Assembly: GCA_965178125.1 (NCBI GenBank)
Contig: OZ237740.1
Coordinates: 310,001 to 374,000, forward strand
Length of the DNA stretch: 64,000 nucleotides
Direction: 5' to 3'
DNA from: Bilabrum cf. latius
Taxonomy: Eukaryota
The position numbers were made by a program, and so were the translations under genes. This document shows, one piece after another, positions 31,544-64,000 of the stretch. The first letter of the stretch is position 1. Every line of letters starts with the position of its first letter. A model generated the notes under the pieces. That model did no database searches. It was not told the DNA's origin and worked only from the letters and a program-made list of their open reading frames with translations.

Positions 31544-31750
31544 CCCCCCCCGCTACGGTAATAAATAAATTTATTCCCTTCGGTTAAGGATGATTAACAT
31601 CATCAATAATTACGTTCAGTCAGAGCTAAAGCTCTTCCCTCTCTCCATTCCTTTTCTCGCTAGTCGCTCCAAAAGTCAAGGTGAGCCTCTTCATACTGCT
31701 ACTTCATATAACTGCTTTATCCTTCTAATTATATAAAATCAATTAAATAT

Positions 31751-31900
31751 AAAACTCTATACGATGACCATATCCACAAATTGCGTATTAGTATATGTAT
31801 TATTTAGCAAAACGTGGATGTAGCCCTCTTGTGAAGGTGTTATGGGACTCTAGCCATTTTCTAGCCAAAAGTTCCATCACTTTATGGGACTCCATTATTC
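31751..31900. repeat. Dispersed intergenic hairpin module, copy 1 (others ~33350-33530, ~43485-43670, inverted ~47990-48146)
   Basis: ATCCACAAATTGCGTA...TAGCAAAACGTGGAT imperfect inverted repeat with conserved flanks. Confidence 0.85.
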
Positions 31901-32561
31901 AACCTTCTAAACTACCTTCATTATACCCCCTTATCCTCGCTTATACCTTCACAAATGGAACAAACGCGTGGATTATGGTTGATGGGTAAAACTCTAAGGC
32001 TACCCCCTTGAAATGGCATTTAAGGGCTGAAGTAGTAATTTAAATATTATTTTGAGGGTCATAATAGCATCTAAATATATAAATATGTGTATAATTATAA
32101 ATATATGGCGTAGAATGATAAAATGAGGTAGTAATTGATACTTTCCAAAGTAGGTTCATACTTTCCAAAGTATCTTCATACTTTTTGAAGTATGGCACAA
32201 AATCGCAATAGTGGCTTTAATGGACAACTGAAATTGAATATGAATATTTAGATTCATCATTTAATATTAAATGTGGCTCTTTAACCGGATGACATTGAAT
32301 ATGAATAATCAAGTTCACATTTGATTTGAACCTGAATATTGGAATTCACGATTTCTTAGGAAATATGAGGGTCTAACCAACAGGATTTAATATTAAATTG
32401 TAAGCCTTTATTAAGGGTGTATATGCTTAGGATATTACTTTATATAATAATCAATATAATTTTCACCATCCACCAGCGGTTATTTTGTGGGTTAATCCAT
32501 CAACTGGATGACAGACGGGCGTTTTTTTAAAACTCAAAAATTATAACTTAGTATTATAGAT

Positions 32562-33332
32562 ATGAACTTTAATAATTATGTCATTGAAAATCCTGTCCTA
32601 ATGAAGCAGATTTATAAGGCTACAGACCATATTACAGATAGTACGCAAAAAATTTTAGAGACCATTACTACGTATGTAGATTTAGGTGGTAAGTTTTCAA
32701 AACCAAAATTAATTAATAAAAATATAGTTAGTGATATTAAAGAGAAAAAAGCCGTGATAAAACCCAAGAAAGAAGAGAAACAGAAGACACAACACGATAA
32801 TAACGACCAGCTTGAAATTAACCAAACATACATTCTAGATAAATTTAATGACTATAAACCACAGAATAATAAAATTTATAACGATGTAGATGATTTACAA
32901 CCGCCAGAATTAATTAGATAGACCGCAATAGATGAAAAATTAACCGGTATGGAGCCTGACAGTGAAAGTGAAATAAACAGCGTTAGTACCGAACAAGACT
33001 AGATAGAAGCAGAAACTGATGATGAAATGATACCTGAGGAAGAGAAAAAAATAATTGGAGACCTAGAAAGGCTAGAAGACGGAGACTATAGGTATAAAGT
33101 GTCCGTAAATGGAAATGATGTATTTTTTGGTGAAATTAATTTACCCGATGTAGAGGCTCTTAAGAAATAGTTTAGCCCTCGTAAATTACAAATTATGATT
33201 TGTAAAATTAAAAGAAATTTTAATATTAATAATAGCGATGATATAAACAGCCCTGAGTTTTGGAATAGCCGTGTATATTTGACCCTTGATGTGAAGGCCG
33301 AACACGAAAAACTACAAGATATCTATAATTAA
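32562..33332 (+). CDS. Hypothetical virophage protein, 256 aa, acidic central region
   Basis: Open through three TAG to TAA 33330-33332. Confidence 0.7.
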
Positions 33333-33695
33333 AAGCCCCTACAACTTAATAAACGGGCTAGAATTTAATAAAATATTTTAATATAACCGCTATATTAAAA
33401 TCTATACGATAGCTATATCCACAAATTGCGTATAATTATATAGTATTTCTAGCAAAATGTGGATGTAGGGCCTCTTGTGAAGGTGGTATGGGACCTTTAG
33501 ATAATTTTTAAAAATAGTTCCATCACTTGAGAAGGTGTTAAAATACACCATTCATATCTCAATCTATTTTCTAGGGCTAAATGGCAAAAATCACCTTTCA
33601 CCTTCATTAATTATTATAGCCCCTTTAAGCCCTCTATAATTAAATATGGCGTTTAAAATAGTTTAAAAATATATTTCTAATAATATATATAGAAA

Positions 33696-62334: not shown

Positions 62335-62404
62335 AATGTTTTCCAATGTTTTCCAATGTTTTCCAATGTTTTCCAATGTTTTCCAATGTTTTCCAATGCT
62401 TTCC
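62335..62404. repeat. 10-bp tandem repeat (AATGTTTTCC)n between penton and MCP
   Basis: About 6-7 consecutive units. Confidence 0.9.
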
Positions 62405-62411
62405 TAAAGGA

Positions 62412-63521
62412 TTACCCGTGTCGGGAAAACTTAAATTTCACCGATGCGGAACCATGCCGAAGATATAGGGGGTGCGTCTCTCCATAGGAATCTTTCCAAT
62501 ACAAATTAAACTGTAGCGTGTCAATACTAGAAGCGTTGAGAAGATCTATGGTGTGTTCTATCTTGGGCTGATACTGGAGAACGGCCTGGTTAATCATCTG
62601 GGAATCATCTAGGACACAATCCATATCCACCAAAACACTTTCCGTGCCTCCTGTAGAACTAATGGACTAATTCGTGGAAAATCCAAAGGGAGTTTTGGCC
62701 GATACCCCCTCGCTTCTCACTGGAAGACTGCTCGTTGTGAAAACGACTCCGCGGAACACCTGGAAATGTGCTAGACTGCCCCTATCCTGGGTCATTTTGA
62801 GTCTGTAAGGGGACTAGGGTATAGTTTCCGTGTATGGGATTGGTGCGAATCCATCATCATCGTTTTCCACCAAATAGTTTGTGCCTAGGGATTTGAATAG
62901 AACGGAGGAAAACACGTCTGGGTTCGTGTCTTGGATTCGCTGGACTGGGAAACCGCTTAAAAGTTCTCCCAATGGTTCATTCAATACCAATCTGTATTTC
63001 TGGGAAGGTTGTCCTTCGTGATAGTTGGAATCCGCGAACAGGGAAAACTTTCCATCGTCATAGGTAAGCGTTGGCGTGGTTGCTACTGCTGACTAGGGAA
63101 ACTTCTCCATGGTCTCATTAAAGAGACTGACAAAGTGTTCTATCGTGTATAAATAATAGTATCTTGTAAATGCCTGGGGGGACTACCAGCTCGGCTACGG
63201 TTCTGCGATTAACTAGGGTTTCCAAATGATGGGTTGCGTTCCAATCATGCTCCCGTCCTCCACGTCTTGGATGCTGATTCTGTAGATGGTTTGGTCTGGA
63301 TTCTTGCTGGAATTTGTGGAAAGGTCTATATCTATGTGGGGAATCCATACGGGAATTGTATTGGTGGATATGGTGAATCGTTGGACGCTCAATTTGTAAT
63401 CCTCCACATTTCCGCTTAAGATTGGCTTTTTCCTCACCTCGTTGTATTGGGCGGGCTGATAGGAGTCTTCATTATTGCGTATATTTGCGTTGATGTAGAA
63501 GTAGTCAGGTTGTCTAGACAT
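62412..63521 (-). CDS. Virophage 2 minor capsid (penton), 369 aa
   Basis: YINANI..PAQYNEVR..PIL..YKLSVQRF..IPVWIP; VVFTTSSLPV; LYWKD..HPLYL..ASVKFKF. Confidence 0.88.
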
Positions 63522-63728
63522 TTACTATACTATAACTTTTTAAGAAAAGAATAAGCAAAAGAGCGGAGCGCGCTTAAGCGCGAGCATCTTGACTAAAAAC
63601 AGTGAACGGGAGGGGTTTTCAACCCTTTGGGAAATGGTCGGAAGTCTTGGGAAATGGATAGGAAACACTTGGGAATTGCTAAAAAACATTCTAAAGATAT
63701 ACTAAGTGGTTTTTCTGAAAAAGTAACT

Positions 63729-64000
63729 ATGGACTACGCCCTAAGTGATACAGATGTAAGGAATTTGTGCGGGAATCCGCCCAGAGTGAAGGGGTTCAAG
63801 GCGTGTGCCGTCTCCATTATACCATATGAGAACTTGGAAAGGGTGGAAAGCATAGATAGAATCGTTTCACCGTCCAAGCCTTGTATTTTGTTGTATTAGG
63901 AAAGTCCTAATTCAGGTCATTGGGTTGCCTTGTTTCGTCGTGGGAAAACCCTGTGTTTCTTTGACCCCTACGGCGTGAAGCCCGATATGTAGCAGACTCT
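63729..64000 (+). CDS. Virophage 2 cysteine protease, partial
   Basis: MDYALSDTD..ILLY*ESPNSGHWVAL..FFDPYGVKPD. Confidence 0.88.

Follow-up and report, generated by a model that had tools for sequence, protein, structure and literature searches.

Introduction

How can two virus-like elements keep long, conserved genes when nearly every one of these genes is interrupted by the triplet TAG, and in what kind of cell could such genes be read? This question is raised by a stretch of 64,000 nucleotides (nt) from the Bilabrum cf. latius assembly (GenBank GCA_965178125.1, contig OZ237740.1, positions 310,001 to 374,000), which is referred to below as the window and is numbered from its first letter. 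The guanine-plus-cytosine (GC) profile divides the window into a block of about 60% GC (1-31544), a block of about 30% GC (31545-57322) and a block of about 45% GC (57323-64000). The second block is an integrated virophage, here called element A, which measures 23.3 kb without a host insertion and has a coding fraction of 0.82 when TAG is read as glutamine (Gln, Q). The third block is a second virophage, element B, cut by the window end. The two are very probably virophage genomes of different lineages, integrated in the GC-rich nuclear DNA of a eukaryote; in both, UAG serves as an ordinary Gln codon, and translation ends at UAA and UGA alone.

Virophages, which form the class Maveriviricetes, express their genes in the factory of a giant virus and have them translated by the ribosomes of the host. 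A virophage that writes about a third of its glutamines as TAG cannot work in a cell with the standard code, and elements of this kind therefore mark their own host range and that of their helper.

Stop codons and open reading frames

Open reading frames (ORFs) were called with TAG as a sense codon (TAG=Q), and the two halves of a split polymerase gene in element A were counted separately. This yielded 27 ORFs, 22 in A and 5 in B, with 121 in-frame TAGs, and 25 of the 27 carry at least one. The 26 complete ORFs end in TAA (18) or TGA (8) and never in TAG, while the last one runs past the window end. The first-pass annotation, a model's reading of the letters, had claimed exactly this pattern of viral genes interrupted by TAG and closed by TAA or TGA. 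Over the 6,338 codons of element A, TAG occurs 100 times, where base composition predicts 111; TAA and TGA are confined to the 21 terminal stops, with no internal case against 371 expected. The frame of the primase-helicase gene A02 runs for 925 codons without TAA or TGA, which has a chance probability of about 6e-25.

Under the standard code, ORFs of at least 200 amino acids (aa) cover 6% of A and 14% of B, and with TAG as sense they cover 68% and 83%. Taking TAA or TGA as sense instead does not restore the long ORFs (cover of 48% and 12% in A, 15% and 14% in B, respectively). Read-through of TAG gives full-length genes, as had been proposed, for major capsid proteins of 629 and 589 aa, a penton protein, an ATPase and the 925-aa primase-helicase. 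The latter aligns over residues 5-924 of its 925 to a database protein of 933 aa (P0006), spanning all 21 of its TAGs, and its stop lies within one residue of the end of that alignment. TAG accounts for 36% of the Gln codons in A and 27% in B. As long ORFs make up just 6-14% of the DNA under the standard code, such viruses go unseen; the expectation that standard gene calling would miss them agrees with a protein search whose five matches included no full-length B capsid. A comparison set of 81 IMG/VR loci, fetched with capsid and primase-helicase alignments, uses the standard code: its median ORF cover is 0.77, and taking TAG as sense adds a median of 0.00 and a maximum of 0.09.

TAG is read as glutamine

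Before any alignment, TAG was masked as X, and the residues of homologous proteins in the masked columns were then read. The primase-helicase has 3,983 homologues at E values up to 0.001, the best with 50% identity. Against 60 homologues, its TAG columns hold 14.5% Q, with a background of 2.8%; all 60 have Q at codon 577, and 40 have it at codon 440. Across the 81 IMG/VR loci, 52 TAG columns hold 17.6% Q (5.1 times background) and 74 columns of the ordinary Gln codons CAA and CAG hold 22.0% (6.4 times). Both kinds of column rank the residues alike, in the order Q, K, E, D, N.

A Codetta-style log-odds calculation on the 42 usable TAG columns gives Q a score of +33.4 bits, the next residues being E at -32.6 and K at -34.2, and as a control the procedure, when applied to the ordinary amino acids, identifies 20 of 20 correctly. 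Taken by element, Q scores +26.3 in A (28 columns) and +7.0 in B (14 columns). Single sites point the same way. The first-pass annotation had named three TAGs at conserved Gln positions, and both the positions and the residue are right: at codon 140 of the putative protease A10 (48315-48317), which precedes the TCG motif, 10 of 10 standard-code relatives have Q; codon 54 of the integrase A16 (55195-55197) is Q in 3 of 3; and codon 299 of B01, in the motif NC*RFI (58682-58684), is Q in 7 of 7 relatives. Its description of the last ORF as an integrase did not stand, as B01 is not a demonstrated integrase.

TAG may be a sense codon and still stand for another residue (Glu, Lys, Tyr or Leu), or be read ambiguously. 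The leading residue is Q in 11 of the 42 columns, E in 7 and K in 6, which gives this alternative some footing. However, the same admixture of E and K is seen in the columns of CAA and CAG, the scores of E and K are far below that of Q, and TAGs sit at invariant Gln positions such as codon 577 of the primase-helicase; another or a mixed meaning is therefore very unlikely. TAG is glutamine in both elements, and TAA and TGA are their sole stops. Gene calling with UAG as Gln, the Codetta-style inference and the profile searches for virophage families, all proposed beforehand as checks, agree with recoded virophages. TAGs aligned with random residues, or TAA and TGA in frame as often as TAG, had been named as signs to the contrary, and neither was found.

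Copies of element A and selection on the TAG-bearing frame

Element A is a multi-copy element. Contigs from the public runs X2 and X5, of differently labelled organisms, carry it at high identity, and they join position 38985 directly to 41471. In the window, these positions flank a GC-rich host repeat of 2,485 bp (38986-41470; repeat families D1, D5 and D7) that lies within A05, the gene of a protein-primed DNA polymerase B on the minus strand. The C-terminal part of A05 (38379-38985) matches the polymerase of the metagenome contig L084 by tblastn at 4e-15, and the N-terminal part (41471-42363) matches Pfam DNA_pol_B_2 at 8e-12. With 38986-41470 skipped, A05 is one open frame of 499 codons plus a terminal stop. 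The window copy of A thus has a disrupted polymerase gene, and uninterrupted copies exist, because the X2 and X5 contigs pass directly across the insertion point.

The insert itself is 65% GC and is built of two tandem units that share their 5' ends (173 nt) and their 3' ends (121 nt). The first unit is 2,174 bp long, with 72-bp tandem repeats, and the other is only 311 bp. From its structure, the insert looks like two tandem copies of one element; no clear target-site duplication was seen around it.

The copies also permit a comparison of the primase-helicase between the window and the X2 and X5 contigs. Among 16 listed differences, 11 are synonymous under TAG=Q and 5 are not, and 13 fall at third positions. 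Differences that are mostly synonymous and at third positions mean selection on the TAG-bearing frame and not decay; the frame is under purifying selection. This bears directly on the idea that the TAGs are damage, either in decaying pseudogenes or as assembly errors of multi-copy elements. Endogenous viral elements often carry false or real premature stops, according to the available text of PMC10120064, and element A is indeed multi-copy. Yet this idea was already refuted by the absence of internal TAA and TGA and by the match of TAG columns with Gln, and it is further opposed by the synonymous copy differences and by the recurrence of TAG sites in independent metagenome contigs (see below), which leaves it with almost no probability.

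Integration of element A

The left border of A is confirmed: the element was inserted into a host gene, called 'g', at 31544/31545. The third copy of 'g' (31260-31544, plus strand), a host repeat gene truncated by the insertion, was identified by blastn and paralog alignment; it is 90.7% identical to its paralog at 18766-19100, and the blastn match ends exactly at 31544. The endogenous state of A is seen twice, in this truncated host paralog and in the GC-rich host repeat inside its polymerase gene.

Two runs from other organisms, X7 and X8, contain pieces of the 38986-41470 repeat and lack the body of A. Their contigs cover 31541-31968 and so include the initial ~420 nt of A, to the left of which they carry another flank; there is a loose end before 31541 and no depth past 32002. 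This pattern at the left end fits the terminus of a mobile element. A homopolymer stands at each visible junction, a C-run at 31545-31551 between host and A and a G8 run at 57315-57322 between A and B, and these could be terminal features of a linear genome or junction filler. The last gene before the G8 run is A20 (56664-57308, minus strand), which encodes a DUF285 repeat protein of 214 aa (Pfam DUF285, 7e-54, from profile position 31). Since A20 starts in mid-repeat, 7 nt from the G8 run, it is probably truncated at its 5' end.

Genetic code and nature of the host DNA

The host block (1-31544) consists of repeat DNA and is rich in satellites. A 115-bp satellite forms a 3.8-kb array at 24044-27859, with 33 copies at 98% identity and a strong AT skew. 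Arrays of a 70-bp unit lie at 1012-1525, 11598-12045 and 20627-21159, and a 39-bp array lies at 7589-9316. The block also holds a divergent gene pair, made up of 'h' (about 900 aa, minus strand) and 'g' (about 500 aa, plus strand), with four copies of 'h' and three of 'g' in the regions 1654-6070, 12092-20231, 21203-22924 and 29872-31544. Neither protein has a Pfam match. Runs from four organisms with different labels contain the end of 'h' at 30001-30892 at high depth, and the pair may be a large high-copy mobile unit. Between h2 and g2 lies a LINE-like (long interspersed nuclear element) retroelement (14958-18423, minus strand), which has three overlapping ORFs in different frames and 10 in-frame TAGs. 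Its reverse transcriptase (RT) part matches Pfam RVT_1 at 4e-10 and is the sole part of the retroelement with a Pfam match; a word-index protein search set to longer proteins returned no match for the RT.

In nine host ORFs there are 19 in-frame TAGs, and the terminal stop is TGA in 8 of these ORFs and TAA in 1. Three 'h' paralogs, whose proteins are 87-95% identical, all keep one TAG, and a second is kept in 2 of the 3; at the other positions TAG swaps with CAG, AAG, GCG or GGG. In the RT motif GVP-X-GSPLS, X is TAG, and three solved RT chains, aligned weakly, show Q at the matching place, within GVKQG/GTRQG. The mobile genes of the host thus use TAG as sense; that this extends to its general nuclear code is probable and well supported.

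A host with the standard code could also be imagined, in which TAG is suppressed only during infection, by a tRNA from the giant virus or from a virophage part beyond the window. Phages with a virus-borne suppressor tRNA that recodes stops are known, Paez-Espino et al. 2019 (PMC6905037) report an ochre-suppressor tRNA in one virophage clade, which they take as a possible sign of reassignment in the host, and the host evidence comes solely from transposon-like genes. However, no tRNA gene was found in the window or in four recoded metagenome contigs related to B (L082-L085), and the host repeats keep TAG at the same paralog codon and at the Gln of the RT motif while ending in TGA or TAA. Suppression restricted to infection is thus an unlikely explanation.

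A second alternative takes the GC-rich flank for a recoded giant-virus genome carrying provirophages and not for a cell chromosome. Virophages can integrate in giant-virus genomes, and the long ORFs of the flank show no intron signs, fall in paralog families and have no Pfam match. Against this stand the 115-bp satellite, the 39- and 70-bp arrays and the LINE-like RT, which look like eukaryotic repeat DNA, and the high depth of the flank repeat units in runs of four differently labelled organisms. A viral origin of the flank is accordingly judged to be quite improbable.

Element B and its recoded relatives

Element B (57323-64000) holds five genes. The major capsid gene B03 (60504-62273, minus strand; 589 aa, 4 TAGs) matches Pfam Sputnik_MCP_1st at 8e-23 and MCP_V20_C at 5e-25, and its family profile (alignment A1) gives matches to the Sputnik capsid V20 (PDB 3j26_A, 3e-71) and to the mavirus capsid (6g45_A, 1.5e-18). 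The penton gene B04 (62412-63521, minus strand; 369 aa, 6 TAGs) matches Pfam V18-19 at 2e-11 and PDB 3j26_N at 1.7e-11. B05 (63654-64000, plus strand) encodes the N-terminal 115 aa of a putative cysteine protease cut by the window end; it matches 12 of the 81 IMG/VR loci by tblastn, is 68% identical to its counterparts in L082-L084 and has no Pfam match. B02 (59826-60446, minus strand) encodes a GKT-motif protein of 206 aa with 74% identity to L082-L084. B01 (58187-59578, minus strand; up to 8 TAGs) encodes a conserved virophage protein with the motif NCQRF, found by tblastn in 7 IMG/VR loci and without a Pfam match. Its first 76 codons, one of them TAG, have no counterpart in L082-L084; the homologue there begins at the position matching residue 77, so the true start of B01 is probably Met77 (59350).

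Two distinct virophage lineages had been proposed for this locus, and the capsids carry the distinction: that of B is of Sputnik type, that of A matches the B family, and the two proteins are just 23% identical, for which reason A and B are taken as two lineages.

The four relatives of B, L082-L085, were found by a metagenome scan with the B capsid. Their capsids are 67-69% identical to it, and their GC content is about 44-48%. The gene order of L082-L084 is that of B: protease, penton, capsid, B02, B01. Each of the four contigs is TAG-recoded, its ORF cover rising from 0-11% to 72-85% when TAG is sense. Of the 18 TAG sites of B that are covered by L082-L084, 6 have TAG there and 4 have Q. Because L082-L085 are recoded and share TAG sites with B, lineage B belongs to an environmental clade that has used the TAG code since before a protein divergence of about 30%, which suggests that the association may be old and that the code would serve as a host-range fence. 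None of the 81 fetched IMG/VR relatives is recoded vs 4 of the 4 nearest metagenome contigs, and standard-code surveys would miss such genomes.

L084 was examined over 13.8 kb of its 15,030 bp. Further genes on it encode a polymerase B, a helicase of the DUF5906/VapE type and a putative ATPase; the ORF syntenic to the packaging ATPase has weak AAA matches, under the cut-off, and the ATPase of B lies beyond the window. Single-protein scans of IMG/VR with either capsid protein gave no close relatives. The left flank of B and the left end of A do not resemble L082-L085; the B flank has no match in the IMG/VR loci, and the left end of A has just two short ones, probably by chance.

The database protein P0001, 70% identical to the B capsid, was considered as a standard-code relative and rejected: it is 98.6% identical to L082 (6039-7799) and has Q at 6 of 6 TAGs of L082. 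Some pipeline has probably translated an L082-like virus with an alternative code already, a step that is unreported in the papers found.

Proposed life style of the elements and its weak points

The genes of A and B would be translated on host ribosomes, with a host tRNA-Gln(CUA) and a release factor eRF1 that ignores UAG, as we infer because the virophages carry no suppressor tRNA here. Both virophages would have drifted to a free use of TAG. Like other virophages, they would stay in the chromosome until infection of the cell by a giant virus, itself bound to tolerate the same code, allows their replication. A larger system can be sketched from this, in which a private code is shared at three levels: a UAG=Gln eukaryote, at least two unrelated, code-dependent virophage lineages, and an unseen giant virus. 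We put this forward tentatively, and lean slightly away from it. If true, the code would be a barcode linking orphan TAG=Gln giant-virus metagenome genomes to their host and their virophages. The shared code and the promoter-like motifs described below could be used to seek the matching recoded giant virus and host.

Several observations weigh against A and B as integrated virophages of a UAG=Gln eukaryote with a giant-virus helper. No conserved cellular gene, tRNA-Gln(CUA) or eRF1 lies within the window. The host-side evidence on the code comes only from repeated or transposon-like genes, and the earlier claim that the virophages share the UAG=Gln code of their host holds to that extent, TAG being sense in host repeats. 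The alignments of the RT to PDB chains are weak overall (E 0.06-0.08). Neither the right end of A nor the two ends of B can be fixed in the window, and the right-hand junction with host DNA lies outside it. An inverted copy of the left end of A was sought in the rest of the window, but the matches were confined to internal intergenic repeats of about 100 nt, hence no terminal inverted repeat was found; as A20 also starts in mid-repeat, A may be truncated or may have B nested within it. Among the listed contigs of runs X2 and X5, none bridges 31544, and the junction is neither confirmed nor denied by them. The protein P0001 is not independent evidence, as it was probably itself translated with TAG=Q at its source. 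The sole hint on giant-virus dependence is the sharing of putative promoter motifs, and no giant-virus gene is present within the window.

Relation to known systems

Sputnik (PDB 3j26) is the closest reference for the virion proteins. B matches its V20 capsid and its minor virion protein, as recognised by Pfam and PDB; A matches V18-19 by Pfam, and its capsid is linked by hhalign, via the B family. Unlike Sputnik, A and B have genes written with TAG=Gln and are integrated in cellular-looking DNA. In addition, A and the B-like L084 carry a protein-primed polymerase B, and the A capsid is too divergent for the Pfam cut-off.

The endogenous mavirus-like elements (EMALEs) of Cafeteria, and mavirus itself, live as integrated virophages in the genome of a protist and carry an rve integrase together with a protein-primed polymerase B. 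A shares both of these genes, and the A1 profile matches 6g45_A. However, mavirus and the EMALEs use the standard code, the capsid here is nearer to Sputnik than to mavirus, and neither a long terminal inverted repeat nor a target-site duplication is shown.

The code-15 crAss-like and Lak phages have the same single codon change. Their code differs from that of the host and is enforced by phage suppressor tRNAs. In the A/B window, by contrast, no tRNA was found, and the surrounding host DNA shares the code.

The nearest precedent in the literature is that of Bellas et al. 2023, in whose available text polinton-like elements of Streblomastix strix use the TAA/TAG=Gln code of their host, which is read as a long association (PMC10120064). 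Like A and B, these DNA viruses are endogenous, carry capsid genes and follow the non-standard code of their host, and they belong to the same broad realm. As described there, they have polinton-type capsids of the 'Metamonada group' and TAA plus TAG as Gln, whereas the present elements are of Sputnik type, use TAG only and have free, recoded sisters in metagenomes. Eukaryotes with UAG alone as Gln are few, and the available text of PMC11687900 lists Iotanema, two phyllopharyngean ciliates and Protocruzia. The GVMAGs V2 paper (PMC13524828) describes giant-virus metagenome-assembled genomes for which alternative codes, code 15 among them, give a better annotation. The word 'virophage' has 0 occurrences in the available text of that paper; these recoded giant viruses would be natural candidate helpers. 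A search of the literature on virophages and polintons with terms for the genetic code found no report of a TAG-recoded virophage, the search covering papers and not the supplementary files, which might list cases. A resident virus that adopts the code of its host is therefore known; new to the literature searched are Sputnik-type virophages, the UAG-only code, two lineages at one locus, and free relatives.

Gene content of element A

The left end of A (31545-32561) is non-coding. It is followed on the plus strand by A01 (32562-33332; 256 aa, 3 TAGs), which has no Pfam match, and by the primase-helicase gene A02 (33696-36473), which matches Pfam Prim-Pol at 7e-16 and PriCT_2. On the minus strand lie A03 (36890-37423; 177 aa, no TAG), an ORF call, and A04 (37477-38184; 235 aa, 3 TAGs), a DUF5872 protein (Pfam, 3e-23). 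Beyond the split polymerase gene come two further ORF calls, A06 (42877-43419, plus strand; 180 aa, no TAG) and A07b (44529-44819, minus strand; 96 aa, 2 TAGs), and between them the Cys-rich A07 (43742-44293, minus strand; 183 aa, 5 TAGs), without a Pfam match.

The morphogenesis genes that follow are all on the minus strand. A08 (44907-46796; 629 aa, 9 TAGs) encodes a very divergent major capsid protein, identified by hhalign against the B capsid family (98.4%, E 7e-15, 491 columns). Pfam MCP_V20_C gives it 17 bits, under the cut-off, and a word-index protein search found no match. A09 (46869-47822; 317 aa, 5 TAGs) encodes the penton, or minor capsid, protein (Pfam V18-19, 29.2 bits with a cut-off of 27). 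A10 (48159-48734; 191 aa, 6 TAGs) encodes a putative cysteine protease found by tblastn in 10 of the 81 IMG/VR loci; it has no Pfam match, and a PDB sequence search gave nothing meaningful. A11 (48743-49843; 366 aa, 3 TAGs) encodes a putative packaging-type ATPase with the Walker-A motif GKSGSGKS, a tblastn match to 3 loci and no Pfam match.

The region 49906-53499 holds A12 (271 aa, minus strand, 4 TAGs), A13 (126 aa, plus strand, 3 TAGs) and A14 (690 aa, plus strand, rich in Q, P and E, 13 TAGs), none of which has a Pfam match. A15 (53545-54162, plus strand) encodes a GKS-motif protein of 205 aa that is a homologue of B02, with 35% identity over the full length (blastp, 1e-41). The family, which occurs in L082-L085 as well and has no Pfam match, may be a small nucleoside triphosphatase or kinase conserved in these virophages, judging from its motif. 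A16 (54199-55356, minus strand; 385 aa, 7 TAGs) encodes an rve integrase (Pfam rve, 6e-11) with a weak chromo-like tail, for which Pfam Chromo is under the cut-off. Three small ORF calls, A17, A18 and A19 (123, 109 and 138 aa), fill 55396-56626.

Promoter-like motifs

Short shared AT-rich elements that abut start codons are seen in virophages driven by giant-virus transcription machinery. In element A, TATATA lies within 25 nt 5' of the ATG in 15 of 21 genes vs 29 of 767 other ATGs (binomial P about 2e-17). A 17-nt motif, GTTTAAAAT[AG][AG][CT]TTAAA, lies 25-50 nt 5' of the primase-helicase, the polymerase, A06, A07 and A07b, and sites of this motif are found at 33651, 36488 and 42832 on the plus strand and at 42409, 44339 and 44864 on the minus strand. 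It suggests a second, possibly early, promoter class beside TATATA. In B and in L084, TATAGTATA stands directly before most start codons, as read from the upstream sequences, and the helicase and polymerase genes of L084 have a longer upstream block in common.

Repeats within the elements

An intergenic repeat of about 100 nt occurs four times in element A, at 31727-31844, 33372-33489, 43508-43625 and, inverted, at 48022-48122. The copies are 65-97% identical, and the repeat may be a regulatory element or a miniature mobile insert. In element B, a 10-bp unit, AATGTTTTCC, is repeated about nine times at 62325-62414, between the capsid and penton genes, and 20/21-bp tandem repeats lie in the non-coding left flank at 57757-57911.

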